Shown piece by piece: positions 517 through 20,917 of a stretch of 64,000 bases of DNA. The DNA is from a virus: IMG/VR virus record IMGVR_UViG_3300029922_000004; one strand, given 5' to 3'. Every line of letters begins with the position of its first letter. Position 1 is the stretch's first letter. The translations under genes and the position numbers were made by a program. Under the pieces are notes generated by a model that saw nothing but the letters and a program-made list of their open reading frames with translations, was not told where the DNA came from and ran no database searches.

Positions 517-969
517 AGAAAGAGGGTGTTTTAGAGTAGTTTTTAAGACAAATAACCCCATGAAAGGCTTGATTTTATTAGCTTTTTTTAATTTCTTGCT
601 TTTTCCCGAAAACTCTGCTAAACTCTTACCAATGAGTGACTTACATCACATAGACAAACAAGGGAGAATAACACTTTATTCTTTGGAGTTGAATTGCTTG
701 GATTTGATTTATTTGAATTTTTTGATTTATTTGAATTTTTTGGTCTGTCTTGCAAATTTATTTAAAATAATTCCAAATAATCACTCTTCTGTTTTCTCCC
801 TATGATTCCTCTACTATTTTTCGTGGCGATGGTGGTGATAATTCGCAGAAAACTCCAATAAACACAAGACAATTAAAAGAAATTAATTAAAATTATTTAA
901 TTAGAATTGGGTGTGTTTTCTCCTAGTATTTTGTTCTTGACTTTGGTGGAAAAAGGTGGTAAAGTTAGA

Positions 970-1080
970 GGGTCAAAGGCTCTCAGCCTACCAGCCGGGT
1001 TAGGTGGCGGGCGGGGTAAAACGAGTCAAAACGTCAGTTAAAGTTAGGACTCTGGTGGGCAATCCATCACCCTGTCCGCC
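970..1080 (+). ncRNA. candidate structured RNA B (75-nt three-way-junction core at 1006-1080)
   Basis: Own promoter TTGACT937-17-TAAAGT960; 12-bp stem 1006-1017/1069-1080 with G-U pairs; arms GAGUC/GACUC and GGUGG/CCAUC. Confidence 0.55.
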
Positions 1081-1545: not shown

Positions 1546-1591
1546 GTAAATTGTCTTGACTATTTTAGAATTTTGGGGGTAATATCTTTAT

Positions 1592-1730
1592 ACACGGTAG
1601 CCGAAAGGTCTAATGCAGAGTGGCTCACAGTTCGGGGAGGGTAGATTTGTGGCGCACCCACTTTAAAAACCATTGCGCCTACTATTCCGCCCAATCTAAT
1701 AAATTGGGGAAATAAGCCGAATACCGTGTG
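1592..1730 (+). ncRNA. candidate tRNA-like ncRNA C
   Basis: Promoter TTGACT1556-18-TAATAT1580; predicted +1 is the start of the ACACGGUA/UACCGUGU terminal stem; class-II D-arm-like GCCGAAAGGUCUAAUGC; followed by a T run. Confidence 0.6.
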
Positions 1731-1773
1731 TTTTTTTCTTGACTTTATTTGAGTAATTTGGTATAGTATTTGT

Positions 1774-1947
1774 GGATGGTGATGGCCGAGAATGTCAAGG
1801 TAAGAGGAAATCTATGACTCAATGCGATGAGTTGTTCATCATAGATATACTATTTAGTTAGTTCGCCGCAAGGTGTCAACGAAAATCTCTGTAAACTGCT
1901 ATGTCGCACAACTAACCAGCGCGGAAGTAACGCCCCGCTCATCATCC
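1774..1947 (+). ncRNA. candidate tRNA-like ncRNA D
   Basis: Promoter TTGACT1739-17-TATAGT1762; predicted +1 is the start of the GGAUGGUGA/UCAUCAUCC stem; D-arm-like UGGCCGAGAAUGUCAAGG; internal hairpins. Confidence 0.6.
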
Positions 1948-2095
1948 GAAAATTTCCATATACGCATTTCGGCGGGAGAGAATTTTCCTAACCCGATACG
2001 GTGTCATAAACCGCGCCTGATTATGGATTTCACTTGACACAAGCAGAAAAATCCGTTAATATTAGTCAGTTAAAACAACACAACCAATAAAATCT

Positions 2096-2515
2096 ATGAT
2101 ACTAACAGAAATCCTCCCCTTCTACGAAGCCCACAATCGCGGCGAAGTGGTCGAATGTCGTCTCCAATATGGGCAATGGCAGCGAGAATGGCAGCGAGCT
2201 AAGTATATTTTCAGGGCTAATTTGGAGAATATTGAAAAATATGAATTTCGCTTCCCGCCGAAGCCCAAACTGCGGGCGTGGAAGGCGTCGGAAGTTCCCA
2301 TCGGCGCGGTGATTCGTTTTAAAGACGAGAGAGGCGTTTCTACTTATTTGTGTTCTAGTACGGCGGTAATCTTGGGATTTAAATATGGGAAAATTTACGA
2401 CTCTACAATTAATAGCCCGTCCAACGCGTCCTATACTCCCGCGCGAGCTTTAGAAGAAATGGAATACTCCACCGACTTCGGAAAGACTTTTAAACCCTGC
2501 GGTATTCTCGAATAA
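2096..2515 (+). CDS. hypothetical protein
   Basis: 139-aa ORF; promoter TTGACA2034-17-TAATAT2057 and a CAGTTAAA leader. Confidence 0.8.
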   Translation: MILTEILPFYEAHNRGEVVECRLQYGQWQREWQRAKYIFRANLENIEKYEFRFPPKPKLRAWKASEVPIGAVIRFKDERGVSTYLCSSTAVILGFKYGKIYDSTINSPSNASYTPARALEEMEYSTDFGKTFKPCGILE

Positions 2516-2516
2516 T

Positions 2517-3071
2517 ATGAAAACAAAATTTAACGAAAAATGGCTCTTAGATGAATCTCCTTGTTCAGATGGATTAGTATTCGCCCGTTCATGCAATTTT
2601 GACTTCGCAAAGATTTATGATACCTGTGAACGTGGTGACTGGTTGATTTGGCTCTTGCGTAGAACGAAAAATTTATCTAAGCCTCAATCAGTTAAAATTG
2701 CAATTACTTGTGCAGAGCATGTTATTTCAATTTACGAAAAGAAGTATCCAAATAACAAAGCTCCTCGTAATGCAATCAATGCTGCGAAAAAATGGTTGAA
2801 AGAGCCCTCTGAAGAGAATAGGAAGGCTGCTTATGCTGCTGCTGATGCTGCTTATGCTGCTGCTTATGCTGCTGCTGATGCTACTGATGCTGCTGCTTAT
2901 GCTGATGCTTATGCTGCTGCTTATGCTGCTGCTTATGCTGCTGCTGATGCTACTGATGCTGCTGCTTATGCTGATGCTTATGCTGCTGCTGATGCTGCTG
3001 CTCGGTTATCAGAAAGAAAATGGCAAGCGAACCAAATCCGTAAGATTGTTCCTAACCCATTCACTAATTGA
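2517..3071 (+). CDS. phage protein with AAYAAADAA alanine repeats (Imm5-like region possible)
   Basis: N-terminus PCSDG...RGDWLIWLL, APRNAINAAKKW and an Ala-rich GCT-repeat tract resemble common phage Ala-repeat proteins. Confidence 0.75.
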   Translation: MKTKFNEKWLLDESPCSDGLVFARSCNFDFAKIYDTCERGDWLIWLLRRTKNLSKPQSVKIAITCAEHVISIYEKKYPNNKAPRNAINAAKKWLKEPSEENRKAAYAAADAAYAAAYAAADATDAAAYADAYAAAYAAAYAAADATDAAAYADAYAAADAAARLSERKWQANQIRKIVPNPFTN

Positions 3072-3178
3072 ATAAGCACCACCGAACGCCGTGAGGTAAA
3101 ATATAATAACAATCACATAGTGAAACAAACCCCTGCAAAGCTAATAGCTTTGTTTAACGAATAGAAAGGAATAAAAAT

Positions 3179-5089: not shown

Positions 5090-5159
5090 GATTACACACG
5101 TTTAAGCAGCCTGCAAAAATAATCTTGACAAAAATTGAAAACCCTGTTAATATAAGTTT

Positions 5160-5440
5160 GTGATTGACTGTTGAAGCGGAACTATGTGTCCGTGGAGGTT
5201 ATCGGGATACAGTAGAAACGAGATATAGCATAACGTTTGCTACAATCATGGTTTGGGAGGAACGTTACTCGTCCCATTAAAATACAAGGTAATCGGATGT
5301 ATGTCTGATTACGGAACTTGGTAGCCGATAGCCTGACTCGGCGAAAAGTCTCACGGGACTTTACCATAAATCATGCAACTAGCGTCGTGGCGTGAGGTTG
5401 ACAAACCTGTTCGGGGAACAGCCTGAAAAAATCCCCTGCA
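5160..5440 (+). ncRNA. candidate large structured RNA F (about 280 nt)
   Basis: Promoter TTGACA5125-17-TAATAT5148; +1 begins the GUGAUUG/CAAUCAU stem; at least five further helical domains; no convincing ORF. Confidence 0.55.
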
Positions 5441-5445
5441 ATTTT

Positions 5446-5682
5446 ATGGACGAAACAAACATTGATTCCGCCGCCAAAACTATAGCAGACAAATTTGCTC
5501 ACGTTTTACACCGCCGCGCCCAACATACTTCAACGATGTTCCGCAAGTCTGAGCGCGGGACATTCGGACGCCGCAATACTCGAAAGCTAAATGATGCTGC
5601 GGTAAATAAGGCTCTTCTCAAAGCCGCAAATGATGCCAAAATTTCGGCGGAATTGAGCGAATTTCCAGTGATTTCGGCTTAA
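5446..5682 (+). CDS. hypothetical protein
   Basis: ATG5446 preferred over the upstream GTG5392, which lies inside the structured region. Confidence 0.65.
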   Translation: MDETNIDSAAKTIADKFAHVLHRRAQHTSTMFRKSERGTFGRRNTRKLNDAAVNKALLKAANDAKISAELSEFPVISA

Positions 5683-5725: not shown

Positions 5726-5977
5726 ATGGATACCCCAAAAATTCCTGCATCTGACCCAAATAAGCAACCCCAAACTTTAGCTGAGTTCTACGCCTTCTAC
5801 TGGAGCAAATTATTTAAAAAATTAAATAAAAATGTCCAAACCCACATCGAGGAAAATCGAATCAAACCCACTAAAATAATACGCGGCAGGGAAATGCGCG
5901 ACCCAATCGTGCGTGACTTCGTGAGAGAGGTGGCGAAACAGGCAGAAGAGGCGTTTGATAAAATTAAAATAATTTAA
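5726..5977 (+). CDS. hypothetical protein
   Basis: 83-aa ORF in gene-dense run. Confidence 0.7.
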   Translation: MDTPKIPASDPNKQPQTLAEFYAFYWSKLFKKLNKNVQTHIEENRIKPTKIIRGREMRDPIVRDFVREVAKQAEEAFDKIKII

Positions 5978-6023
5978 TTAAAATTGTCTTGACTTGGTTT
6001 GAGGGTTATAGTAGAGTTAGAAG

Positions 6024-6212
6024 ATGAAAATTACATACGAATCCAAAATCCCTCTTGAATGGAATCATCCTATCCATGTCGCTAAACGGGCCGCTTCTAA
6101 TCCCAAGAGGGCAACCAAACTCAAGGAGTATCTTATCCGTATCCAAGACGGAACGCGGGACAAACGCAGAGTCTATGACGCAGCCGAGAATCACACCATA
6201 GGGGAAATTTAA
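6024..6212 (+). CDS. hypothetical protein
   Basis: Leaderless promoter TTGACT5989-17-TAGAGT6012-6-ATG. Confidence 0.75.
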   Translation: MKITYESKIPLEWNHPIHVAKRAASNPKRATKLKEYLIRIQDGTRDKRRVYDAAENHTIGEI

Positions 6213-6270
6213 TTAAATTATTTATTAAAATTTACTTGACTTCAACCGAGCAAACTGATATTCTCTTCAC

Positions 6271-7257
6271 ATGACAAAAAACCTATTCGAGTCAGTCGTG
6301 GGTCAGGATGAAGCCAAGAAAAAGTTGGGCTTCTATATCAACGCCTACCACCAAACCCGTATCATGCCTAATCTCCTTTTCGCCGCTGCGAAGGGGAATG
6401 GGAAAAGCCTCATTGCCCGCGAAACGGCCAAACAACTTTTGGCTTATGGCGAAGATGGCAAGCCGCTAATGAAAGAGGATGGCGTCACCCCCAAGAAGAA
6501 AACCTTTTTGGAGATTAACGCCAGCACCATTAAATCAATTCGTCAATTCGTCAACTCTGTGCTTATCAATCATGTGGTGGATAAAGACGTGACGGTTTTT
6601 ATTGACGAGGCCAGCGAACTCAAAAACGACGTGACGATGAGTTTACTAACCATGCTCAATCCTAACGTCACCAACAAAAATACTTTCGTCTATGACGAGT
6701 ATGCGATTGATATTGACTTTGCTCGGCAGACCTTCATCTTCGCTACAACTGAATCGGAACAGATTTTTGCTCCGCTGCTCGACCGCCTAACACGAATTGA
6801 CCTGTGCGCCTATACCTATGACGACCTCGCAAAGATTATTCAAAAGTCCGCGCCGGAAGTTTCTTTCATTGAAGGAGTGTTGGAAGAAATGTCGAAAGTG
6901 GTTCGTGGTAACGCGAGAAATGCAATCAAATTAACTAACGATGTCAAGACATATCTTTGTCGCGAGAAAACTTTCGGGCGTAAATCGTGGGAAGATTTGA
7001 AAAACATTCTGTCCATCAAACCTTTGGGTCTTTCTCCCATTGAGATTTCGATTCTCCGTTTTTTGCAGGAGCGTTTAGAGGGGTCGAGTTTGACCAATCT
7101 CGCGGCCAAAACCGGACTTTCTCGAACTGCACTACAGGCTGATTATGAAAGCGTCTTACAAAAAAATTCGCTCATGGATATTCAGGCCGGAAAAGGGCGC
7201 ATGATTACACCGAGGGGCTTGGAGTATCTGAAAAATCTTGATGCTTGTCCTGCATAA
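6271..7257 (+). CDS. ruvB: RuvB-like Holliday junction branch-migration AAA+ ATPase
   Basis: VVGQDEAK start, Walker A AAKGNGKS, Walker B VFIDE, FIFATT, LLDRL arginine finger, C-terminal wHTH ending GKGRMITPRG. Confidence 0.85.
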   Translation: MTKNLFESVVGQDEAKKKLGFYINAYHQTRIMPNLLFAAAKGNGKSLIARETAKQLLAYGEDGKPLMKEDGVTPKKKTFLEINASTIKSIRQFVNSVLINHVVDKDVTVFIDEASELKNDVTMSLLTMLNPNVTNKNTFVYDEYAIDIDFARQTFIFATTESEQIFAPLLDRLTRIDLCAYTYDDLAKIIQKSAPEVSFIEGVLEEMSKVVRGNARNAIKLTNDVKTYLCREKTFGRKSWEDLKNILSIKPLGLSPIEISILRFLQERLEGSSLTNLAAKTGLSRTALQADYESVLQKNSLMDIQAGKGRMITPRGLEYLKNLDACPA

Positions 7258-8298: not shown

Positions 8299-8614
8299 AA
8301 ATAAAATAGTGCAAGCAAAGAACTACAAAAACAGATAGATGCCCCGCACCTAACCCATTACAAATAAACAACTTATGAAAATACTCTACACCATATTCTG
8401 TGTCCTCACCGCGATGATACCATTCACGGGAGTATTTTTTGGTCTATCGTGGACTTCTTTTTTACACCGTTAGCATGGATTAAGTGGCTTATCTTGCATC
8501 AGGTCACAGAGACAGTAATCAGGCACACATTTGGATGGTTTTTTAACTGAAATTACTTGACACGCGCCGAAAAATCTGTTAGATTGATAGCAGTTAAATA
8601 ACACACACAAAATT

Positions 8615-9178
8615 ATGTCCACACATGCTAAAACAACAATTCGTGACGAGCAAGATAAACCCATTCTTTCATTCTACCGGCGATGTGACGGGTATTACTC
8701 TGGCATCGGTAAAGAACTCGCGGAGTTTTTGAAGGATTTCAGGGTTACAAACGGCTACGGTTTGGGCGACAACACCAAAACCGCGAATGGTATGAGTTGC
8801 TTGGCCGCGCAGTTGGTCGCACACTTCAAGACGGGAATCGGCGGGGTTTATATTTGCGGTCATAATGATAACGAGGAATACAATTACTTGGTGCGTTATA
8901 TCACGCCGACGAACGGCGAACGCGCGGGCAAAGTTTCTCTTATCGGTATAACCACAAGTGAAACGCGGGTGTTTCCGTTGTATGACGAAATAATCCCGAC
9001 CGTGATTAAAACCGTGTCCTTCGTGTATGACAAGGGCAGGAGCAGCGGCGAGGAACCGAAGTGGCGCACGATTGAAGTCATTCAAGAAACCGAAGATTAT
9101 ATTGACGGCTTGCAGAATGGTGAGTTTCGCCGGTTCTCGAAATGCAAAATCGTCGGTGGTAAAATAATCACCGAGTAA
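8615..9178 (+). CDS. conserved phage protein, N-terminal YRRCDGY domain plus C-terminal WYL-like SH3 fold
   Basis: SFYRRCDGYYSGIGKELAEFL; FVYDK..EPKWRTIEV..YIDG..FRRFS resembles WYL. Confidence 0.7.
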   Translation: MSTHAKTTIRDEQDKPILSFYRRCDGYYSGIGKELAEFLKDFRVTNGYGLGDNTKTANGMSCLAAQLVAHFKTGIGGVYICGHNDNEEYNYLVRYITPTNGERAGKVSLIGITTSETRVFPLYDEIIPTVIKTVSFVYDKGRSSGEEPKWRTIEVIQETEDYIDGLQNGEFRRFSKCKIVGGKIITE

Positions 9179-9413: not shown

Positions 9414-9456
9414 AATTTAGCTTGACTTTAATTGATTTATTTGGTAGTCTCTAAAT

Positions 9457-9606
9457 ATGAACGAAATCAACCAACTGATTCAGGCAATTTTCGACTACGA
9501 CGAGAAATATGGTCGTCCCATGGAAGGTAGTAACCTTCGCAGAGAGGCGTATGACAAGATAATTGCGCTGACCGAACGCGTGAACATTTCTGAAAATAAG
9601 TCTTGA
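9457..9606 (+). CDS. hypothetical protein
   Basis: Leaderless promoter TTGACT9422-17-TAGTCT9445-6-ATG; below ORF cut-off. Confidence 0.65.
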   Translation: MNEINQLIQAIFDYDEKYGRPMEGSNLRREAYDKIIALTERVNISENKS

Positions 9607-9637
9607 CTTTGATTGGTTAGTTTGGTAGGATTTGAAT

Positions 9638-9826
9638 ATGACAAAACAACACGCATACAACCTGATTCAAGACGATAAAGCAATCTTCATTAACGAATGC
9701 AATGTAGGTAAAGACGGTTGGGAGCAAACTTACGAAGCCGAAGGACACCGCATTAAAATCTGCGCCATTGGAGATGACAGATGGCTATTTGATGACGTGG
9801 ATAGCATAATAATTGAAAAGATTTGA
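9638..9826 (+). CDS. hypothetical protein
   Basis: Leaderless promoter TTGACT9603-17-TAGGAT9626-6-ATG. Confidence 0.7.
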   Translation: MTKQHAYNLIQDDKAIFINECNVGKDGWEQTYEAEGHRIKICAIGDDRWLFDDVDSIIIEKI

Positions 9827-9870
9827 TTATTTTACTTGACTTTAATTGATTCGTTTGGTATCTTATCTTT

Positions 9871-10035
9871 ATGAATAAAAACATCCTCGGCAAACAATAC
9901 GGTTATCGCAGCAGCGCAAACCGTGCAATTAAAAACTTTCGTGTGCGTTACTTCGCCACCATTCCAAAGGGCTTTCAATTTTGGGTGAATCGAATTGATG
10001 AGGGATGCCATGAGATAAATGGAGTAAAGAATTAA
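9871..10035 (+). CDS. hypothetical protein
   Basis: Leaderless promoter TTGACT9836-17-TATCTT9859-6-ATG. Confidence 0.65.
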   Translation: MNKNILGKQYGYRSSANRAIKNFRVRYFATIPKGFQFWVNRIDEGCHEINGVKN

Positions 10036-10080
10036 GAAAATTTACTTGACTTTGATTGATTTATTTGATAGGATTTGAAT

Positions 10081-10248
10081 ATGGAAAAACTCATTGCCGA
10101 ACTTGGCACTCAATTAAACAAAGCCATCCAAGTCATCACCAGCGAATATCCTGTTGAACAATGGCCGGAATATGGTGTCCCCGCTATGGAAGCCGCACTC
10201 GAAAAAGCAATTGCTTACGCCGAGAAGAAGAGTAAATTAAAGAAGTAA
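10081..10248 (+). CDS. hypothetical protein
   Basis: Leaderless promoter TTGACT10046-17-TAGGAT10069-6-ATG. Confidence 0.65.
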   Translation: MEKLIAELGTQLNKAIQVITSEYPVEQWPEYGVPAMEAALEKAIAYAEKKSKLKK

Positions 10249-10290
10249 ATTTTACTTGACTTTAATAGGACTCTCTGATAGTATTCTTAT

Positions 10291-10506
10291 ATGAGCAAAT
10301 ACGACATTTTTAATATGGAGCTTTTTGTTGGCGACGAAGTAGCCTTTAATCCACCAGTCTATAAGGGGCTTGTAATCGGGACAATCGTTTCATTCTCGGA
10401 CAAACAGGTTAGGGTATCATATAAACCCACTGGAAAACAAACTACAACCGAGGCTAGTGTCTATCCACGCAATGTGGCAAAACATCGCAGCATGGGATTT
10501 GATTAA
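10291..10506 (+). CDS. small SH3/KOW-like protein
   Basis: LFVGDEVAF..GLVIGTIVSFSDKQVRV; leaderless promoter. Confidence 0.7.
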   Translation: MSKYDIFNMELFVGDEVAFNPPVYKGLVIGTIVSFSDKQVRVSYKPTGKQTTTEASVYPRNVAKHRSMGFD

Positions 10507-10590
10507 ATGATTTTGATTATTTTTACTTGACTTTGCTTTCTCACTCTGATACATTGTCGGCAGTTAAACAACAAACAAACACAAAAAATT

Positions 10591-10851
10591 ATGGCAAACA
10601 AAAACCAAAAGCAGATTCGGGCAAAGCTGACTCGCAAGGGCGCAGACGGTTTTGCGGAACAAGTGCCAACCCACGGCTACCACAATAATGAGCATGGGGC
10701 TTTTGCTCCTCGCCGGATTGCGGCGGTTCACACTGGCGAATACAAACCCAAAACCATCAACGGCAAGCCAAGCAAGTTCCCGAAGGTCTGCGCGGAGTCT
10801 GACGAAATGCCTTTGTCACGCCAGCGTGAAATCTTCTACGGCGTCCGCTGA
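10591..10851 (+). CDS. hypothetical basic protein
   Basis: Promoter plus CAGTTAAA A/C-rich leader. Confidence 0.7.
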   Translation: MANKNQKQIRAKLTRKGADGFAEQVPTHGYHNNEHGAFAPRRIAAVHTGEYKPKTINGKPSKFPKVCAESDEMPLSRQREIFYGVR

Positions 10852-10947
10852 AAATTTGGACGGGGCGAACGGTGCGAGTCCGCTAAAAGAACACTCAACC
10901 CTGTCTTTTTATCTTGACATTCTCATTAACCCTGCTATACTACTCGT

Positions 10948-12428: not shown

Positions 12429-12463
12429 GTGAGTAATATAGCAGATTTGTTAGCGGTTGTCAA

Positions 12464-12601
12464 TTAAAATCCACCAAGAAAAGTCAAAATCCATCGGCGG
12501 GAATTATCTTCTTTAATTTCAAAAGTCGAGGTCGCGCCGGTGAAGTGTTTAAGAAACTCCGCGAGTTGTTCAAGACTGTAAAACGTAATTGTTCCATTCA
12601 T
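12464..12601 (-). CDS. hypothetical protein
   Basis: 45 aa; TTGACA-17-TAGTAT-6-ATG. Confidence 0.65.
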   Translation of the reverse strand: MNGTITFYSLEQLAEFLKHFTGATSTFEIKEDNSRRWILTFLGGF

Positions 12602-12717
12602 GCCGAAATACTATCATACCCGCCAAATAATGTCAAGCCAAATCTTTCCAAAATAGGGCTAAATAGGTGATTAGCCCGGTTTATGTCAAGCATAATGTTC
12701 TCTAATCATCACTTCTG

Positions 12718-12781
12718 TAAGTCGTTGAGCATGAGGGGTTTAGGTGTCGGAGCCTGTAACCCGCTGTATTACAACAGGTTA
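12718..12781. repeat. 64-bp element copy 2 (core A)
   Basis: 25+14+25 geometry, core ggtgtcggagcctg. Confidence 0.9.
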
Positions 12782-12792
12782 CAAGATTCGTG

Positions 12793-13026
12793 TTACGAAA
12801 ATTTCGGCGGGACTATTTCGTCACTCCATTTTGCGTTAATCACGTCGTCAAGATTGCATTGCCAGAATTTCGCAATCACGCGCGTAACCTTTTTACGCCG
12901 GAAAGAGTAATCGAAAACGACAGTGACAATTTCAGGACTGCAATCAGGCAAACCAGTTGTCGGATTGTAATTTTGAAGCCAATAGTTGCCGGTCGTTTTA
13001 GGTTTATCGTAAGTCATTACATTCAT
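12793..13026 (-). CDS. hypothetical protein
   Basis: 77 aa; own promoter. Confidence 0.7.
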   Translation of the reverse strand: MNVMTYDKPKTTGNYWLQNYNPTTGLPDCSPEIVTVVFDYSFRRKKVTRVIAKFWQCNLDDVINAKWSDEIVPPKFS

Positions 13027-13076
13027 GCGTTAAGTATGCCAGAAAATTATCAATTGTCAAGTAAAAACTTCTCTTA

Positions 13077-13140
13077 TAACTCCCTCATTATCAAAGGGTT
13101 ACACGCTCCGGCGCGGAAGTCGTTGAATTGCAACGGGTTA
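13077..13140. repeat. 64-bp element copy 3 (core B, inverted)
   Basis: Core cacgctccggcgcg; terminal TTA is the stop codon of the adjacent gene. Confidence 0.9.
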
Positions 13141-13383
13141 GCAATCATATTCAAGATACCGATTGAGAATTTCCGCATCTTGCGGGCGAGATTCGAGTTT
13201 TAATGAAACGGAGTTCCCCCAAGTTTGATAGGCGGCATTTTCTTCCCTGCCAATGCTGCAAAAACCAGCCGAAACTGGTATGCCGTATTCAACTTTAACT
13301 TCACTATGCTGCAACAATGGACTGAAAACAACCGCCATCTCAATATCCCTTTTTTCGAAAATTATGTATTTTGATTTGGTCAT
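13138..13383 (-). CDS. hypothetical phage protein
   Basis: KYIIFEK..AVVFSPLLQHSEV..VSAGFC..WGNSVSLKLESRPQD. Confidence 0.7.
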   Translation of the reverse strand: MTKSKYIIFEKRDIEMAVVFSPLLQHSEVKVEYGIPVSAGFCSIGREENAAYQTWGNSVSLKLESRPQDAEILNRYLEYDC

Positions 13384-13460
13384 TTTATTTGATTTTTGTC
13401 TTGACACAGTAAAGAATCGCCGCGATAAAAAGGCAGATTTCCATAAGTTTTGCTAATCGG

Positions 13461-14156
13461 TCAGATGACGAAACCGCTTGCATCAGTTTTCGCTTTGCCC
13501 TTTTGTTTCAAACCGACGACGACGTTGCGCGGGTCGTTAAAACGTAAATCACTTTCGTCGCCATTTACAATTTGCTTTCCAAGATATTCAGCTTGCAAAC
13601 TTTCGCGGAAAACTACCGCGACATTTCCGCCAGCAGCCAAAACCTTTTCAACATCGGCCTGATTTGATTCCGAACGGGAAAAGGTTAGATGATAATTTGC
13701 AGGCAATTCGCCGTTAGCATGACGCAAGGCGCGGGCGGATGATTTTGTGTAATCGTAAAATTGAATATCTGGAAAAATTTCCATGATATTTTTACCGTCA
13801 AATTTGATGCTTTCCCATGCTAAATCGCTTGTCCCATTTAATCTGCACGCGACTTTCATTTTCGCTTTTGCACCGCGTTTAATGAGCGCGGAAATTTCTT
13901 TAACTAATTGCTTCCCATATTCGGCGCGATTAGAGAAGAAAAGTTTTGTGCGATTGATACGTCCTTCATTTACAGCCTTGTAAATTCCGCCGAAACCAGC
14001 CGTAAAAAGACACACCGCTTTGCACCCTTCGGAAGCATTTGGGCAGGTATTTACGCCGCTTGCCATTGCGGGGGCAAGGTATTGAATACCCGTTAAGTAA
14101 CCGAGTTTTTCACCTTTGACAGTTTTGGCGTCATTTCCAACAGATAGTAATTTCAT
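13461..14156 (-). CDS. Gp88-like protein (radical-SAM-like Cys motif)
   Basis: NTCPNASEGCKAVCL, RLNGTSD, QFYDYTK, YHLTFS, GDESDLRFND motifs as in mycobacteriophage gp88-type proteins. Confidence 0.75.
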   Translation of the reverse strand: MKLLSVGNDAKTVKGEKLGYLTGIQYLAPAMASGVNTCPNASEGCKAVCLFTAGFGGIYKAVNEGRINRTKLFFSNRAEYGKQLVKEISALIKRGAKAKMKVACRLNGTSDLAWESIKFDGKNIMEIFPDIQFYDYTKSSARALRHANGELPANYHLTFSRSESNQADVEKVLAAGGNVAVVFRESLQAEYLGKQIVNGDESDLRFNDPRNVVVGLKQKGKAKTDASGFVI

Positions 14157-14343
14157 TCCCTAGAGAATATCAGACTACGCGGCCAATGTAAAGGAAATTT
14201 TGAACTTATTTTGGACTAATTTTTTCGCAACTTTCGTAATATGCGCGTAATATGGCACAATAATTGCTCAACTTTTCCCTAATAATGGTAATAAGAGTTT
14301 CTAATGTCATCACCGCGCGGGTAGTGCGCGAGTAATGCGTGGG

Positions 14344-14407
14344 TAAGTGCTTGATTATGAGGGGGTTACGCGCCGGAGCCTGTAAGTTCCTGAATATCAA
14401 TGGGTTA
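14344..14407. repeat. 64-bp element copy 4 (core A)
   Basis: Core cgcgccggagcctg. Confidence 0.9.
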
Positions 14408-14409
14408 TG

Positions 14410-14583
14410 TTAATCCTCGAAAGATTCCGGCAGGTTTTTCCAGATTCCATGAGTTGCTTCAACAGCCGCAAGCCGCTTTTGTTTTTGGCGGTCGCTTAAC
14501 TTTGTTTTGTCCGGCACGACGCGGACGGGATTAAAACCCCACGTTTTGCGGATTGATTTGATTGCTTGGAGTTGAGATTTCAC
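14410..14583 (-). CDS. small basic hypothetical protein
   Basis: GTG overlapping the upstream stop; IRKTWGFNPVRVVPDK. Confidence 0.6.
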   Translation of the reverse strand: MKSQLQAIKSIRKTWGFNPVRVVPDKTKLSDRQKQKRLAAVEATHGIWKNLPESFED

Positions 14584-14756
14584 AGCGGGGAAAATGGTTT
14601 TTCTTTAGCAATTTCATCGGCCAACGCCTTTTGCGCCAAGTCAGAATGAATATCGGTTGTCGGCAATTCGGCGATGGGATAGTATCCGTGACTGCCAGAC
14701 CAAACTAGCCAGACTTTTCCGGTTGATGTTGGCCAGTTGATGAGTTTGATTTCCAT
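14580..14756 (-). CDS. hypothetical protein
   Basis: 58 aa; TTGACA-17-TAATCT-6-ATG. Confidence 0.65.
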   Translation of the reverse strand: MEIKLINWPTSTGKVWLVWSGSHGYYPIAELPTTDIHSDLAQKALADEIAKEKPFSPL

Positions 14757-14787
14757 ATCAAAAGATTACCACATTCAGGCTACAATG

Positions 14788-15060
14788 TCAAGCACAATTT
14801 TTACCAATCATGCGGGTTTGATTTTGCATATTGGTTTTGATACGATAAACGCCGAGGCCAAGCGGTTTAATATCCACATATTCAACCTTGCCTTTGATAA
14901 TCACGGAAAAGTTTGTGATTAAAATGTATTCCGCCAAATCTTTTTTTACGCGAATTGCATCGTCTTTTGATTCACAGCGTCGATTAACGAGCCAAGAGCG
15001 CAAATCTCCCAAACGCTGTTCAATTGTCAGTTTGCGAGTTTTCACTAATGCTTCATTCAT
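14788..15060 (-). CDS. hypothetical protein
   Basis: TTGACA-16-TATTCT-6-ATG. Confidence 0.7.
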   Translation of the reverse strand: MNEALVKTRKLTIEQRLGDLRSWLVNRRCESKDDAIRVKKDLAEYILITNFSVIIKGKVEYVDIKPLGLGVYRIKTNMQNQTRMIGKNCA

Positions 15061-15166
15061 TCCAATAGAATATCATACCCGCGCTAAATGTCAAACCATT
15101 ATTTCATTCAATTATCAATTATTATCTTGACAAACCTTCTATGATATAGTAAGGATGGAATCTTCA

Positions 15167-15230
15167 TAACCCTTTGATTCTAAAGGGTTTATAGGCTCCG
15201 GCGCGTAACCCGTTGAAACTAAACGACTTA
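15167..15230. repeat. 64-bp element copy 5 (core B)
   Basis: Core taggctccggcgcg. Confidence 0.9.
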
Positions 15231-15298
15231 TGAAAGTGTTACCACAAAAGAAAAACGCCGCGCAGTTAAGCACGGCGTGAGGTGAGATGCTGCGGAGA

Positions 15299-15652
15299 TT
15301 ACGCGGCGGCGGCAACATGGCCGGAGTTGCGCCAAGTTGACTTAACATATTTCCGGGCTTTGGGCGTCAGGACTGTAAAGCCCGCGAAGTTCACGCTCAA
15401 AACTCGTTCAGAACGGAACGCGATAAACTTTTCGTGATTGTGCGCGGATAGCGCGGTGAACAACGTATTGCCCGCCGTTGATTTCCAAGCGCGGTTGCGC
15501 GGATTGCCGACGATGGTATATGTTTGAATTGGCCGGTTTGAATTGCGCGAGTCAATCGGGTTGTAAAGCACCTTGTAAGTAGGGGCAATGAAACCAGTTT
15601 TGAACGCGCCGATAATGGCGAGGATGAGGAGGGCGATGAGGAGTGTGAACAT
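15299..15652 (-). CDS. membrane-anchored hypothetical protein
   Basis: Hydrophobic N-terminus; CAGTTAAA leader. Confidence 0.7.
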   Translation of the reverse strand: MFTLLIALLILAIIGAFKTGFIAPTYKVLYNPIDSRNSNRPIQTYTIVGNPRNRAWKSTAGNTLFTALSAHNHEKFIAFRSERVLSVNFAGFTVLTPKARKYVKSTWRNSGHVAAAA

Positions 15653-15740
15653 AACTGTTTTTGTATTTTTTTGGGACTGTTTTTTTTGTTTGTTTTTGTT
15701 TAACTGACAGGGAATAGATTAACAGATTGCGCGGCGGTTG

Positions 15741-15989
15741 TCAAGCCTTTTCCGCCAGATTATCAAAGAAAATTTGCGGTTCAAGTTTTTGTGTAGAATA
15801 CTTTTTGCTGGCGAGCCATTGATTGATATGTTTTGAAGTCGTGCGGCTCCATTTCTTCCCTGTGATATAGGCAATACCGCCTAGGAGACCGCGACTAACA
15901 GCCGCAACGGGTGTTTGATAAGAAAAAAGGATGTCCATTCCATCAATGGTTACTTCGGTTTGATTTGGCGCGAGTTGTTTTAATTTCAT
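15741..15989 (-). CDS. conserved phage hypothetical protein
   Basis: ILFSYQTPVAA..KKWSRTTSKHINQW motif. Confidence 0.8.
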   Translation of the reverse strand: MKLKQLAPNQTEVTIDGMDILFSYQTPVAAVSRGLLGGIAYITGKKWSRTTSKHINQWLASKKYSTQKLEPQIFFDNLAEKA

Positions 15990-16089
15990 ATGCGAAAACT
16001 ATATCAGATTGCCGTAAATAGTCAAGCCAATAAATAGCGGTTCTGCGACGTTTTTCTCTTGACATCTCACGCGTTTTCTGTTATGTGCG

Positions 16090-16153
16090 TAAGTCGTTGA
16101 ATTGCAGGGAGTTACACGCCGGACCCCGCAAGTGCTTGATTATCAAACACTTA
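16090..16153. repeat. 64-bp element copy 6 (core A)
   Basis: Core cacgccggaccccg. Confidence 0.9.
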
Positions 16154-16170
16154 CGGAAGTCTTGCGAACG

Positions 16171-16614
16171 TTACAATTCGACTTGCTTGATGAGTTTAAC
16201 GGCATCGGCCACAAAGTAATCTTTCCGGCGGCAATTTAACACTTTCACGCCGATGCTGCGAAGAAAATCCCAAAGTTTTTCATTCCAAAACTTGACGAGG
16301 TGTTCAACCGTGCGCGTTCTACCGAGCGGGATAAACTTGTATTGGCGGCGAACATTCATGGCGATTGCTTCCCAAACGATATAATCATTGCCGAGAATTT
16401 CAGAGTTGTTTCTGACAAAGCGGTTGGCTTGCTCGCGTGTTTTGCAGACAAAAATACCCGAACCGGCCAAACGGATATTTGGAATTGTCCACGTTTGCGT
16501 CGAATATGACAAGCCAAGAAAATTTTTGATTTCAATCGGCGTGAGGGGATAAGTCATAAGGCAGGACTGACACGCTTTGGTGGTGACTTTATAGACGGTA
16601 GTAAATGTTTTCAT
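16171..16614 (-). CDS. hypothetical protein
   Basis: ATG16614 after the CAGTTAAA leader. Confidence 0.7.
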   Translation of the reverse strand: MKTFTTVYKVTTKACQSCLMTYPLTPIEIKNFLGLSYSTQTWTIPNIRLAGSGIFVCKTREQANRFVRNNSEILGNDYIVWEAIAMNVRRQYKFIPLGRTRTVEHLVKFWNEKLWDFLRSIGVKVLNCRRKDYFVADAVKLIKQVEL

Positions 16615-16753
16615 GTTGGCGATATTGTTATGGTTGACGTTTAACTGTTGACAAGATACCAGATTGCCCGCGAGAGTCAAGGGAATAAATCGCCGCCTTG
16701 TGTTATTATTAGCTTGACAAAGGCGCGGGATTATGGTATGGATTGCGCCGTCG

Positions 16754-16817
16754 TAAGTTGTTGATATTCAACGAGTTAGCGGCTCGGGCGCGTAAACCCC
16801 TGATTATGAGGGGCTTA
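16754..16817. repeat. 64-bp element copy 7 (core B)
   Basis: Core gcggctcgggcgcg. Confidence 0.9.
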
Positions 16818-16898
16818 CGCCGGAATTATTTCCGCCGGAAAAACCATTTAATGCGCGTCAGGCCGTTGGAGTCAAAGTAGATGCAGATTTTCATGGTG

Positions 16899-17063
16899 TT
16901 AATCGCGCAGGTTTTCGATGTTGACAATCGCCGCCGGTATCTTGGAAAGTCCAACGTGCTTTTCCATGATTAAGTAACGCTCAACCGTGCCATAAGAAAC
17001 TTGGCCGGTGAAAGTGTGGCGGTAGGTTGTGCCGTTGAGTTTGTAAGTAAGTATTGTTTTCAT
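16899..17063 (-). CDS. hypothetical protein
   Basis: 54 aa; own promoter. Confidence 0.6.
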   Translation of the reverse strand: MKTILTYKLNGTTYRHTFTGQVSYGTVERYLIMEKHVGLSKIPAAIVNIENLRD

Positions 17064-17082
17064 GTGTGGATAATGTAACAGG

Positions 17083-17451
17083 TTAATTGTTGTTTGTCAA
17101 GATAAAAACCGCTAGGAGTTCTTTAATAAAATCTTGGTCATTGTCCAGCGTGATATTGTGATTCTGGCCGCCGGTATAATCAGAAAAATCTTTTGCCGTG
17201 CGAACGAGCATTGTATCTTTGAACCAGCGCAAATCGCTGATTGAAAAATAAAATATCCGCCCGTCAGACAATTTGAAAAACCCGCTGGCGTCAAAATGGT
17301 TAGGCTTGGAAACTTTAATATCGGTCACGCCGATTGATTTCAAAAACGCGGTAAATTCACGCTTGAAAAGTTTATGCCACGCCAGATATTGCGGCGTTCT
17401 ACCACTGGACAATTCAAAATTTTGTTTAGTTGCAAGGATGAGTTTTTTCAT
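17083..17451 (-). CDS. conserved phage hypothetical protein
   Basis: NHFDASGFF..YFSISDLR..MLVRTAKDFSDYTGGQN; TTGACA-17-TAGTCT-7-ATG. Confidence 0.8.
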   Translation of the reverse strand: MKKLILATKQNFELSSGRTPQYLAWHKLFKREFTAFLKSIGVTDIKVSKPNHFDASGFFKLSDGRIFYFSISDLRWFKDTMLVRTAKDFSDYTGGQNHNITLDNDQDFIKELLAVFILTNNN

Positions 17452-17461
17452 ATAAGAAAGA

Positions 17462-17815
17462 CTAGCAAAGATATTTGTTTTTGTCAAGGGTAAAATGAAT
17501 ATCATTTCGCTCATTAAGCCAGCAACTTTTCACGGTCGCCACGTCAAAATCAGGGAGCAAAGCAATCGCAATATCAAACCGCGAATCATAACCAATTCTA
17601 ATAACGATTTTGATTATTAAACCGGCGGGATTGGTTTCAACTTCAATAATGTTGGCGCGTGTGACTTCGACAACAAACGGCGGCTTTGAAATTATCCCAT
17701 ACCTGTCATTGATGCACGAAAGTTTTGCATGGTGGGAATATGTTAGGCGATACTTGCGCCCGAAAAAGTATTCCGCCGCTTTCGGCAAACCCAGTTGGCT
17801 ATGATATAATGCCAT
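17462..17815 (-). CDS. conserved phage hypothetical protein
   Basis: LTYSHHAK..DRYG..VKSCWLNERNDIHFTLD; own promoter. Confidence 0.75.
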   Translation of the reverse strand: MALYHSQLGLPKAAEYFFGRKYRLTYSHHAKLSCINDRYGIISKPPFVVEVTRANIIEVETNPAGLIIKIVIRIGYDSRFDIAIALLPDFDVATVKSCWLNERNDIHFTLDKNKYLC

Positions 17816-17920
17816 GAGGAAACACTAGCAGAACCGGGGAAAGAGTAAAGGAGTTTTTTAAGTTATTGTTATTTATTATCTTGACAAGGGGATAAGATTA
17901 TGGTAAGGATGAAAACTTCG

Positions 17921-17984
17921 TAAGTCGTTGATTCTAAAGGGTTTATGCGCTCCGGCGGGCAAGTGGTTGATAATCAAGGGGATA
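17921..17984. repeat. 64-bp element copy 8 (core B)
   Basis: Core tgcgctccggcggg. Confidence 0.9.
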
Positions 17985-18089
17985 TGAGATTGGCCGCGCC
18001 AGCGAACTTTCGTCCCCTTATTTATAACAACCGTTATCTTTGTGAAGTTTGGCCAAACAAGTCACAACATTACGGTCGGCGCGTTAAAT

Positions 18090-18165
18090 TGGTAACGGGT
18101 GGCCGAATCGAACGACCGAACTTTGCGTTATGAGCGCAACGAGATAACCACTTCTCCAACCCGTA
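18090..18165 (-). tRNA. tRNA-Met(CAU), initiator-type scaffold, encoded CCA
   Basis: UACGGGU UG GAG AAGUGGUUAU CUC G UUGCG CUCAUAA CGCAA AGUUC GGUCG UUCGAUU CGGCC ACCCGUU ACCA; 76 nt; 1:72 mismatch and A11-U24 as in fMet. Confidence 0.9.
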
Positions 18166-18169
18166 AAAT

Positions 18170-18236
18170 TCTAGTCTGTTACTCCGTTGTGCGTTTCGCG
18201 CAAGCGCGGACTAGCAACCCCGATTCACAGACAAGA
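18170..18236 (-). ncRNA. candidate structured RNA between the cloverleaf and tRNA-Met
   Basis: UCUUGUCUGU/ACAGACUAGA closing stem, UCCG/CGGA, UGCG-CGAAA-CGCA hairpin. Confidence 0.4.
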
Positions 18237-18246
18237 TTCTAAAATT

Positions 18247-18320
18247 TGGTGGACGTATCGTGCCGCCTACGCCGGATTTTTACCGGAGGTCAAAGGGACT
18301 TATTCCAGTAACCTAACACT
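18247..18320 (-). ncRNA. 74-nt degenerate cloverleaf ending in CCA
   Basis: Promoter TTGACA-17-TAAAGT; stems UGGA/UCCA, GUC/GAC, CCGG/CCGG, CGUA/UACG. Confidence 0.45.
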
Positions 18321-18618
18321 CTTAAAACTTTACACTATTTCTCAACTATTGTCAAGATAAAAAACATGGCGTATTATCGTTTTATATCACCGCGCCTACG
18401 GATTGCTGAAACGCATTACGGGTAATCCCATGCTCGAACTCGTGTCCCCGCTTTCTTTTCATCAGATAATTGTCAACTAATCGTTCGTTCCTACTAGAAT
18501 CGCTAACAACAAAGATATATTAGCAGATTGCCGCGAATACGCAAGGGAAAAACCTCACTATTTACGCTAAAAACTTCTTGACATTCTCCCGCGTTTGTGG
18601 TATAGGAGCAAAATCGCA

Positions 18619-18683
18619 TAACATGTTGTATTTCAAGGACTTACAGGCTCCCCCCGCGCAACCCATTGGTAATCAACGGGTTA
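18619..18683. repeat. element copy 9 (core B, 15-bp core)
   Basis: Core caggctccccccgcg. Confidence 0.9.
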
Positions 18684-18692
18684 CGCTGGCAA

Positions 18693-18908
18693 TTATTCGT
18701 TGAGATAATCGTCGGCTTCGCGGTCGTTGTAATCCTGCAAATCGTCTTCGCCGCTGCCCGCGCCGGAATAGTCGAGTTCGTGACGGTCTTCCCATGACGC
18801 ATCAAGATAGGCGTCTTCCGCGAACTCGGTTGTAAAATCCGGTGTTGACATTTGCGTCAGTGGCGTGATTTCAGACTCGCTCGGCAGATTCGTGAATTGG
18901 TTACTCAT
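18693..18908 (-). CDS. small acidic protein
   Basis: D/E-rich (EDAYLDASWEDRHE..EDDLQDYN); could be a DNA mimic (inference). Confidence 0.7.
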   Translation of the reverse strand: MSNQFTNLPSESEITPLTQMSTPDFTTEFAEDAYLDASWEDRHELDYSGAGSGEDDLQDYNDREADDYLNE

Positions 18909-18964
18909 ATGCGAATACAATATCAGAGTTGGAAATTTTGTCAAGAACTATTTTAACATTTTGC

Positions 18965-19028
18965 TAACTCGTTGAATATCAAGCGGTTATGCGCCGGGGC
19001 GCGTAAGCCGTTGTGGTTAAACAACTTA
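18965..19028. repeat. 64-bp element copy 10
   Basis: Core tgcgccggggcgcg. Confidence 0.9.
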
Positions 19029-19040
19029 CGCGGATTTGAT

Positions 19041-19259
19041 TTACGAAACTTTCACCGCTGCCGATTTAATTTCCGAAACATAAACGTCGCCCATTTCCGT
19101 GCAAAACGGTGAGGTTACGCTGCAAAACCATCTTGCGAACGGCTTATTGTCGTCCACTTGCCATTTCTTCAAGACTTTCCACGTCCAGCTTCCATCCAGC
19201 GTTCGCCAGACTTCGTAAGGGTTGGAAACCGGACGAGTTTTTGCACATTCATTTTTCAT
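19041..19259 (-). CDS. conserved phage hypothetical protein
   Basis: WTWKVLKKWQ..ARWFCSVTSPF.EMGDVYV; leaderless promoter. Confidence 0.8.
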   Translation of the reverse strand: MKNECAKTRPVSNPYEVWRTLDGSWTWKVLKKWQVDDNKPFARWFCSVTSPFCTEMGDVYVSEIKSAAVKVS

Positions 19260-19290
19260 GGTTGTATATTAGCAGAGTTGGGGTTGACTG

Positions 19291-19467
19291 TCAAGAGAAA
19301 ATTTGCTGCGTCCAAACAATGTCGCCATTGCAGAAAATTGTCACGGGGACTTTGCGGGCAACCATTGCATGAGCAAAACGCATCGCATCATCCAAACTGT
19401 CACGCGCGGACGGCGCGGGAAAGTGCATTGTGAAGTTCGGCGTTTTGGCGGTGTAAATCTTTTTCAT
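19291..19467 (-). CDS. hypothetical protein
   Basis: TTGACT-17-TATTCT-6-ATG. Confidence 0.65.
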   Translation of the reverse strand: MKKIYTAKTPNFTMHFPAPSARDSLDDAMRFAHAMVARKVPVTIFCNGDIVWTQQIFS

Positions 19468-19498
19468 GGTTAAAGAATAGCAGGGTGAAAGGGAAAAG

Positions 19499-19636
19499 TC
19501 AAGATAAAAGTTGCTCAATTTCAGTCCACCCCATAGAGCGCAATTCGTTGACAATCGCGGTGTCAGTTGGGGGAATGTTTTGAGCCATCAGTCTTGCGAC
19601 GATTGCCCGAATAATGTCAGCGCCATAAGTAATCAT
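19499..19636 (-). CDS. hypothetical protein
   Basis: 45 aa; TTGACT-16-TAGACT-6-ATG. Confidence 0.6.
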   Translation of the reverse strand: MITYGADIIRAIVARLMAQNIPPTDTAIVNELRSMGWTEIEQLLS

Positions 19637-19732
19637 TCGATAAGTCTATACTATTCCCGCCAATAGTCAAGGGATTTTATTTTTATTCATTATTTACTTG
19701 ACAAGGCGCGGGGATTATAGGCCGCGATGTTG

Positions 19733-19796
19733 TAAGTCATTGAATATCAACACGTTACAGGCTCGGGCGCGTAAACCCTTGGTAATCAAGAGGTTA
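19733..19796. repeat. 64-bp element copy 11 (core B)
   Basis: Core caggctcgggcgcg. Confidence 0.9.
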
Positions 19797-19806
19797 CGCT
19801 AACCGT

Positions 19807-20370
19807 TCAAAACTCGTTTGCTAGGTCGTTAAACTTTTGCACGTTATCCGCGCCGATTAACGCGGCGAGCTTGTGATACAGTCCGCCGCAATGGTCGTAA
19901 ATGTTTTTCGCTTTGATACTATCGGCGTCATAGTCGAAATTTGCAGCCCAATTTTCAAAACTTTCATCATGCGCGGCCAAGGCATCACGGCAATAAGACG
20001 CCAAAACTTCGTAAGACTTCGGCGTGACCTTTTGATTTTTCGCAAGTTGCGCGGCGGTGCTGGCGTGAAGTTGTTTGTTTTTGAATGACACGCTAGAATT
20101 GCGCTGGACGGCATAAACAACGTTCTCTTGGTCGGCGGATAAGTGATGAACAAAAGAGCTTGGCGTTTTGATTTTCCAATCCACATGACCCACGCCTAAA
20201 CGATACTCCAAAGACAACGGCGAATTTTGCCGCCCTGAAAATATCAAATGGAAAAGAATATGCGGCCAATCCCCTTGCACGTCACCCAAAGGCACGGAGA
20301 TGGACACGGTTAAATTTAGGGTTTCAAAAAGCTCTTTGGCTTTCTGGTTTGCGAGTTCGTAATCTTTCAT
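19807..20370 (-). CDS. conserved phage hypothetical protein
   Basis: YEVLASYCRDA..SFENWAANFDYDADSIKA motif; leaderless promoter. Confidence 0.8.
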   Translation of the reverse strand: MKDYELANQKAKELFETLNLTVSISVPLGDVQGDWPHILFHLIFSGRQNSPLSLEYRLGVGHVDWKIKTPSSFVHHLSADQENVVYAVQRNSSVSFKNKQLHASTAAQLAKNQKVTPKSYEVLASYCRDALAAHDESFENWAANFDYDADSIKAKNIYDHCGGLYHKLAALIGADNVQKFNDLANEF

Positions 20371-20477
20371 GCGAATAGAGTAGCAGAATTGCGGATAGAG
20401 TCAAGAGAATAAATCGTCGTTTTGGAGTATTTTTTCCTTGACTTTTGCTATATTCTCTGCTATAGGAAACATCGTTG

Positions 20478-20541
20478 TAAGCCGTTGATTTGCAAGGGTT
20501 TGCGGGGTCCGGCGCGGAAGTCGTTGAATATCAAGGGGTTA
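20478..20541. repeat. 64-bp element copy 12 (core B)
   Basis: Core cggggtccggcgcg; terminal TTA is the stop of the adjacent gene. Confidence 0.9.
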
Positions 20542-20712
20542 TGAATCTGATTGATGCAAGACTCCATCACGGGCGCTCGTGCTTAAGCGATAAACTTTTT
20601 TGCCGTTGGTTTGAAAAGTGTGGATTGTCACCCTGCCGTTGAGTTGGTCAACCTGAATAATGAGAGTGCCGAGTTCGGTTTTGATTTCAATAGGTGACTG
20701 GATTGTTATCAT
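20539..20712 (-). CDS. hypothetical protein
   Basis: 57 aa; stop lies in the element. Confidence 0.55.
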   Translation of the reverse strand: MITIQSPIEIKTELGTLIIQVDQLNGRVTIHTFQTNGKKVYRLSTSARDGVLHQSDS

Positions 20713-20713
20713 A

Positions 20714-20887: not shown

Positions 20888-20917
20888 AAAGTAAGATTAG
20901 CAGATTTCGCGGGAATG

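Follow-up and report, generated by a model that had tools for sequence, protein, structure and literature searches.

The early region of a large, uncultured phage from peat probably contains a gene for a small RNA, here called RNA1, which on the evidence of its sequence would represent a new and previously undescribed family of two members. On balance we lean toward the view that RNA1 is part of an array of promoter-driven non-coding RNAs, in which RNA1 is a genuine small RNA, the segment next to it (RNA2) is a lineage-specific and maybe decayed cassette, and neither one is a mimic of a tRNA, a tmRNA or a YrlA RNA. An earlier note on this DNA, made from its letters alone, had described the two as a tandem pair of RNAs with tRNA-like 5' ends. 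Below, "the window" is the whole 64,000-nucleotide stretch of viral DNA that was analyzed; L120 is a related contig, and the features discussed are listed in Table 1.

Table 1. Positions of the promoters, RNA units and related features in the window
Feature	Position	Strand	Description
Promoter and RNA0	promoter 937..965, unit to 1092, structured core 1006..1080	+	outside the RNA1/RNA2 finding
Promoter P1	1556..1585	+	TTGACT 1556-1561, 18-nt spacer, TAATAT 1580-1585; drives RNA1
RNA1, 138-nt candidate small non-coding RNA	1592..1729	+	behind P1
T7 run	1731..1737	+	between RNA1 and the next -35 box; L120 has T5 there
Insertion relative to L120, ~1.4 kb	1737..3178	+	P2, RNA2, P3, 139-aa gene, Imm5-like 184-aa gene
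Promoter P2	1739..1767	+	TTGACT 1739-1744, 17-nt spacer, TG-extended TATAGT 1762-1767
RNA2, 174-nt lineage-specific untranslated segment	1774..1947	+	closing helix 1774-1782/1939-1947
13-codon mini-ORF (MVMAENVKVRGNL)	1776..1817	+	ATG 8 nt past the P2 -10 box
Inverted -35 box and spacer start	1788..1800	-	ccTTGACATTCTC on the minus strand
Promoter P3	2034..2062	+	recurrent leader CAGTTAAAACAACAC; drives the 139-aa gene 2096-2515

Promoters and leaderless genes of the window

The window is part of the genome of a large tailed phage with a tape-measure gene; it also carries a terminase gene (30366-32210) with tail-fiber and capsid genes downstream, and its DNA is seen in many peat metagenomes. 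We scanned it for promoters with the pattern TTGAC-N16-18-TAnnnT (family consensus cTTGAC-N16-18-TAnnnT). About 37 of the 47 matches are plausible promoters that are co-oriented with the genes, and each of these drives one small gene, usually as a leaderless mRNA; about ten others, located within long open reading frames, look like chance matches. An ATG is present 5-9 nt past the -10 box in 28 of the 47 (the spacer is usually 6 nt and reaches 8), and these 28 promoters give leaderless mRNAs. The leader CAGTTAAA(C/T)AACA is found at another five, and four, at 937, 1556, 5125 and 18355(-), have neither a near ATG (about +6 to +8) nor the CAGTTAAA leader. The early genes of this phage nearly all have leaderless mRNAs. 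Relatives found through their terminases have the same promoter family and architecture, and three of them (G001-G003) follow the leaderless rule too. In so regular a layout, where each gene has a sigma-70-type promoter to itself and most messages are leaderless, non-coding cassettes are easy to recognize. The earlier note had given RNA1 and RNA2 a sigma-70-type promoter each, and on this point it was right: P1 (at 1556) and P2 (at 1739) lie where it placed them and fall within the promoter family of the phage.

Several other features of this layout were seen in passing. The arrangement of one promoter per small gene is found, for example, at 3629, 6236, 7264 and 9422-10914 on the plus strand and at 12463-21312 on the minus strand. 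The shared A/C-rich CAGTTAAA(C/T)AACA leader occurs at 2063-2095, 8586-8615 and 10556-10585 (+) and at 15715-15690 and 16652-16625 (-), a similar leader is present in relatives G002 and G003, and it may be of a translation-enhancer type. An A+T-rich motif, ACACAA and then AATTAATTAAAATTAT, recurs at 860-900, 1100-1140, 1230-1262 and 5965-5985; its copy at 860-900 is kept in L120, and the motif might mark another class of promoter or a site bound by a protein. Finally, at 700-745 (+) an A+T-rich unit of ~22 nt (GATTTATTTGAATTTTTT type) is directly repeated, and short, low-complexity RNA and DNA contigs of other organisms pile up there.

RNA1, its conservation and its neighbors

RNA1 would be transcribed from P1 by the host's sigma-70-type RNA polymerase. 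Its 5' end, ACACGGTA (1592-1599), pairs perfectly with its 3' end, TACCGTGT (1722-1729), in a closing helix of 8 bp. The motif GCCGAAAG (1600-1607) comes immediately after the 5' strand of this helix, 9 nt from the 5' end, and the rest of the molecule includes a GC hairpin (1651-1656/1674-1679) with a loop of 17 nt and a CCCAAU/AUUGGG hairpin (1690-1708) with a loop of 7 nt (CUAAUAA). When the first 10 nt of each promoter's transcript were paired with the sequence 60-300 nt downstream, for all 47 promoter matches, the helix of 1739 ranked first (-14.2 kcal/mol) and that of 1556 second (-13.4), with the next best at -9.1; this ranking overstates the case, since most of the transcripts begin with A+T-rich coding sequence and the 5' ends of RNA1 and RNA2 are G+C-rich. 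As a control the real 5' ends were paired with the dinucleotide-shuffled downstream 246 nt in 1000 trials each, and an equal or better helix arose in 54 trials for RNA1 (p ~0.05) and in 88 for RNA2 (p ~0.09). Thus the terminal helices described in the earlier note, at 1592/1729 and 1774/1947, were correctly located, but both are only marginally better than shuffled controls. In folding of the whole molecules neither RNA1 (z -0.9) nor RNA2 (z -0.6) is more stable than its shuffles, and the minus strand of RNA1 scores better (z -2.6) than the plus strand, which counts against a structured RNA1.

These modest helix and folding values are among the points in favor of a different reading, in which the region has no RNA genes at all and is made up of tandem early promoters, spacer DNA and decayed cassettes, with RNA1 a recently exchanged promoter module and the closing helices due to chance. 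We consider that reading unlikely, and evidence against it comes from comparison with relatives of the phage. The flanking 139-aa, 86-aa and 71-aa proteins are known from this phage alone and are useless as anchors for such a comparison; the conserved 328-aa AAA/RuvB-like protein encoded at 6271-7257 was used as the anchor, and it led to many relatives, all of them at 74% identity or less. The only close relative found is L120, a 21-kb contig of an NCBI metagenome assembly, which is syntenic with the window over ~20 kb and whose coding blocks are 69-82% identical to it in nucleotide sequence. Among the relatives anchored in this way L120 alone carries RNA1 and the adjacent unit RNA0, and none carries RNA2.

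The block 1548-1745, which comprises P1 and RNA1, reaches 93% identity with L120 in an alignment of 199 bp, the best value of all long blocks, and RNA1 itself matches L120:657-794 at 133 of 138 positions (96%), with five substitutions and no indels. P1 is kept in L120, where it has a 17-nt spacer, with two substitutions and two indels within ~44 nt. Upstream of P1 the two sequences are unalignable, and downstream the similarity stops right after the 3' strand of the closing helix, apart from a generic next promoter. It is this near-identity without indels, in a setting of unalignable flanks and of genes that have diverged by 18-31%, that leads us to read RNA1 as a real non-coding RNA gene, and it speaks against the view that no RNA gene is present. 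The conserved block does take in the promoter and has sharp, module-like borders, as the latter view would have it, and the high identity of RNA1 might stem from a promoter module that was recently exchanged and not from selection.

The five substitutions in RNA1 all lie in unpaired columns of the RNAalifold consensus (39 pairs), a further point against chance helices; the probability of this is ~0.016 with 60 of 138 positions unpaired, for a structure that was fitted to both sequences, and the minus-strand fold accommodates the five changes equally well. The sole open reading frame that covers the changes (1620-1715) has the five substitutions in four codons, giving three amino-acid changes, two of which are within its 22-codon TTG core. 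Since the substitutions alter amino acids there, we see no sign of coding constraint in RNA1, and no frame of RNA1 or RNA2 has a protein-level match in the loci examined, a point that also speaks against the reading without RNA genes. RNA1 is known from two sequences only, between which no covarying pair is seen; its covariance model matches these two copies and nothing else. Searches for more copies of RNA1 with nhmmer, covariance models and pattern scans were negative, and covariance models gave no further copies of RNA1 or RNA0 in 20 loci or five viral records. The earlier note's description of both as promoter-driven non-coding units is, in our judgment, reasonable for RNA1, the best-conserved long block in 20 kb of synteny, and as a discrete RNA RNA2 is unproven.

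RNA0 is the best-supported structured novel RNA of the region. In its 75-nt core two hairpins branch from a 12-bp outer helix (1006-1017/1069-1080) to form a three-way junction, and this core folds at z -6.0 on the plus strand against -2.9 on the minus strand. Comparison with L120 finds real covariation: of 22 pairs none is broken, two have changed in a compensatory way and three have switched between G-U and G-C, and one hairpin loop is freely variable; these compensatory changes, so close to RNA1, are another argument against a region free of RNA genes. A metatranscriptome contig spans 1017-1156, and RNA0 has no Rfam match. A comparable unit occurs in L097, a 65.7-kb IMG/VR contig of the more distant relative G001, where a promoter is followed by a 130-nt RNA with a closing helix that starts at +1 (6088-6262). 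It folds at z -4.6 (none of 200 shuffles is as stable), lies upstream of a small Cys-rich open reading frame, matches nothing in Rfam and shows no sequence relationship to RNA1 or RNA2. RNA0 and the L097 unit indicate that this group of phages does carry cassettes of structured RNA behind promoters, which raises the prior for RNA1.

Two further units of the window have a promoter and no close ATG. The promoter at 5125 is followed by ~290 nt without an open reading frame (5125-5450, +), which fold at z -2.0 on the plus strand and -0.5 on the minus strand; only this promoter and the first 60-70 nt are kept in L120 (81%). In the tRNA-Met unit (18090-18355, -) the tRNA has its own promoter at 18355 and then a 155-nt untranslated leader, which nhmmer finds to be weakly similar to G002 and G003 (E 8e-5); the tRNA was found by ARAGORN and is absent from Rfam results at the gathering score. 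Shuffled sequences fold as well as the segments 408-522 and 18166-18322(-) do.

Other searches were likewise negative. At the gathering score Rfam has no match anywhere in the window; blastn of 900-2100 against 50,697 phage records gave no match, and blastn of 380-2100 against five related IMG/VR records gave chance matches only. Exact-pattern scans of IMG/VR and GTDB genomes with segments of RNA1, RNA2 and RNA0 returned chance matches or none, those for RNA2 falling in coding DNA. Seven metagenome contigs with the 139-aa gene offer no variation, since their identity across the region is 99.9-100%. A motif common to RNA1 and RNA2, GCCGA..GTC.AA, was set aside since it recurs in coding DNA across the window and is not RNA-specific, and readings of the inverted repeats as MITEs or attC sites were rejected, there being no target duplication and no R-box, and the conserved block running through the promoter.

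RNA2, transcription of the region and tRNA-like features

L120 has RNA1 and then directly a promoter and a homologue of the gene at 3179, so that the stretch 1737-3178 is an insertion/deletion difference between the two phages. RNA2 lies within it, and neither L120 nor the other loci examined hold an RNA2 homologue. The 9-bp closing helix of RNA2 includes one G-U pair. Its ATG at 1776 sits at the usual leaderless-start position of the phage (by rule 6-8 nt of spacing) and opens a 13-codon frame, so the earlier note's statement that there is no open reading frame was incomplete. In the segment 1784-1800 (GGCCGAGAATGTCAAGG) the earlier note saw a D-arm; in reverse complement this segment reads as the -35 box of the phage with the start of its spacer: the 13-mer GAGAATGTCAAGG (1788-1800) matches the promoter at 21117(-) exactly, that at 10914(+) in 12 bases and that at 20921(-) over 11 nt. 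There is no usable minus-strand -10 box at 16-18 nt from it, the nearest TAnnnT being 25 nt away, and we therefore read this inverted -35 box as a fossil. The leaderless-type ATG with its short frame, the fossil box and the position of RNA2 in a segment missing from L120 are the remaining points for the reading without RNA genes, and RNA2 may indeed be a decayed leaderless gene cassette and not a structured RNA. Three-frame translations of RNA2, compared as a pseudogene test, match nothing in the loci examined, and translation matches demonstrate no protein relic in it. A 59-aa open frame at 1858-2034 has two matches, both to repeat proteins (E ~1e-5) and without DNA similarity, and was rejected as a repeat-inflated chance match. 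Elsewhere in the insertion, the Imm5-like immunity-type gene (2517-3071, +) has an Ala/Asp/Tyr-rich repeat tract at ~2820-3000; metagenome contigs differ in it by indels of 3-9 nt, and its length varies among metagenome strains, with calls of 184, 161 and 157 aa (the last cut by a contig end).

RNA2 is probably transcribed. One metatranscriptome run contains a 270-nt contig (depth 11.9) with an exact match to 1737-1912, the only exact-match contig of its run among the matches listed in 8 kb. This contig includes P2, and so extends upstream of the predicted +1 of RNA2, and its first 94 nt are unlike the window; these 94 nt of foreign upstream sequence indicate that the P2-RNA2 module also exists in another sequence context, in an RNA library. 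It is possible that the contig comes from DNA carried over into that library. The RNA evidence as a whole consists of assembled library contigs, from which ends and strand are not readable. RNA runs X18 and X19 contain no contig over RNA1 or RNA2, which is not evidence of absence.

A contig that crosses P2 implies read-through, and this is one of the observations that would fit cis-acting leaders of the early unit, similar to the put RNAs of HK022, which act on the transcribing polymerase or on the stability of the transcript. RNA1 and RNA2 are directly behind strong early promoters, on the strand of the downstream early genes, and nothing that convincingly resembles a terminator lies in between. 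The search for canonical terminators was negative; the RNA1 closing helix together with the T7 run is suggestive, yet T-runs precede many of these promoters. Since such a T-rich element lies upstream of many members of the promoter family, the T7 run is not a clear terminator, and it is more likely a T-rich upstream element, or possibly the U-tract of a branched terminator. We nonetheless think a role as cis-acting leaders decidedly improbable: almost all of the downstream genes have promoters of their own, which makes read-through control seem unneeded, RNA1 precedes a different gene in L120, and inspection of RNA1 and RNA2 revealed nothing put-like.

The earlier note interpreted both RNAs as tRNA mimics of YrlA/Y-RNA or tmRNA type, which might be decoys for tRNA-targeting defenses or scaffolds, here considered as scaffolds for a Ro60-type protein. 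ARAGORN, run on the window for tRNAs and tmRNAs, finds only the tRNA-Met at 18090-18165 and nothing at RNA1 or RNA2. The comparison with Rfam that the earlier note had named as a check was made by cmscan of 300-2400 against all 4227 families at E<=10, with YrlA (RF02553) confirmed in the library; it gave three chance matches and no tRNA, tmRNA or Y RNA/YrlA. Neither ARAGORN nor the Rfam scan found a tmRNA with its tRNA-Ala-like end and tag frame. By inspection no T-arm, with its UUCRANY loop (T54-A58), adjoins the 3' acceptor strand: the 3' helix strand of RNA1 is preceded directly by GCCGAAUA, without a 5-bp stem, and the only UUCG run (1631-1637) lacks a flanking stem and has a G at the position of A58, an invariant A in tRNAs. 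The earlier note had itself recorded that CCA is missing, and indeed none follows either helix (that of RNA1 is followed by GUUUUUUU and that of RNA2 by GAAAAU). Of its two class II D-arms, compared here with the usual 3-4 bp stem and A14, G18 and G19, the one in RNA1, GCC-GAAAGGUCUAA-UGC, is laid out like such an arm and fits loosely, with one C-U mismatch and only one nucleotide between helix and arm; the one in RNA2 is the inverted -35 box, and its loop has no GG. The lesson is that visual likeness to a tRNA D-arm misled here, as the RNA2 motif is simply an inverted promoter box.

In YrlA RNAs the motif GNCGAAN0-1G lies near the 5' end, beside the stem in which the two ends pair; their central part has T and D stem-loops that hardly vary, a Ro60 (TROVE) gene is encoded on the same strand no more than 4 kb away, and YrlA genes are present in some phages (PMC4201824). 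In RNA1 GCCGAAAG fits this six-base motif, beside its closing helix, and RNA2 (GCCGAGAA) does not have it; together with the loose D-arm and the occurrence of YrlA in phages, this is what favors mimicry. In the predicted folds of RNA1 and RNA2 no T or D stem-loop of the YrlA kind is visible, and no TROVE/Ro60 domain was matched in Pfam among 11 open reading frames, the neighboring ones and nine large ones of the window, TerL and the tail-fiber frame being compared with PHROGs only. With RNA2 not conserved as well, we regard mimicry as extremely improbable; it is largely refuted by the sequence, and RNA1 and RNA2 are not supported as mimics of tRNA, tmRNA or YrlA.

Possible roles and comparison with known systems

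We propose that the region belongs to a series of non-coding units, each expressed early from a promoter, in a phage whose genes otherwise mostly have leaderless mRNAs from one promoter each. RNA1 would be a stable, trans-acting small RNA with both ends locked by the 8-bp closing helix, which would shield them and, with the U run, may aid formation of the 3' end. Its conserved 17-nt loop, its CUAAUAA loop and the GCCGAAAG segment would be the likely contacts for a partner, protein or RNA, early in infection. No perfect complement of at least 11 nt to RNA1, as might mark an antisense target, occurs anywhere in the window. RNA2, within its lineage-specific insertion, would be a probably transcribed unit that may be a decayed leaderless cassette. 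A bolder idea, which we consider quite unlikely, is that RNA1, RNA0, RNA2 and the unit at 5160-5440 form a battery of early, end-closed structured RNAs, which a lineage of large leaderless-mRNA phages would carry as exchangeable promoter-plus-RNA cassettes and use as decoys or sponges. If so, their targets would be defense nucleases, Ro60-type RNA quality control or RNA-binding regulators, and the battery would be an RNA counterpart of the protein anti-defense cassettes in the same region. To our knowledge phage-encoded small RNAs are few and most of them are without a known function; if those described here are stable early RNAs, they would offer a tractable entry to RNA-based host takeover or counter-defense in uncultured phages.

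Among described RNAs, YrlA/Y RNAs (RF02553; PMC4201824) are ~100-130 nt long with their 5' and 3' ends paired in a stem, and some are phage-encoded. RNA1 is like them in its paired ends and in the GNCGAAN0-1G-type motif (GCCGAAAG) near its 5' end, and unlike them in that the YrlA covariance model does not match it, T and D stem-loops are missing and no TROVE gene turned up in the window. The put RNAs of phage HK022 are cis-acting antiterminators of ~70 nt with two stem-loops that lie behind early promoters. RNA1 is similarly encoded immediately behind an early phage promoter on the strand of the early genes; however, it is predicted to be a closed multi-branch molecule, and different genes follow it in the two phages. 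The pRNA of phi29 (Rfam Phage_pRNA), of 120-174 nt, is made from an early promoter near one genome end and has paired ends and a central junction, and it belongs to small podoviruses with protein-primed DNA. It shares size, an early promoter near one genome end, pairing of the 5' and 3' ends and a central junction with the RNAs of the window, which differ in coming from a large tailed phage with a tape-measure gene and in having no pRNA match in the permissive Rfam scan. Finally, the stable RNAs C and D of phage T4 (species 1 and 2 RNAs) are encoded in its tRNA region, are ~120-140 nt long and contain no open reading frame; they are made early by the host polymerase and processed from the tRNA cluster transcript, and they have tRNA-like ends. 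We know of no function for them. RNA1 has its own promoter, no tRNA neighbor, no CCA and no sequence similarity to RNAs C and D, but it resembles them in being phage-encoded, in its similar size and in having no open reading frame.
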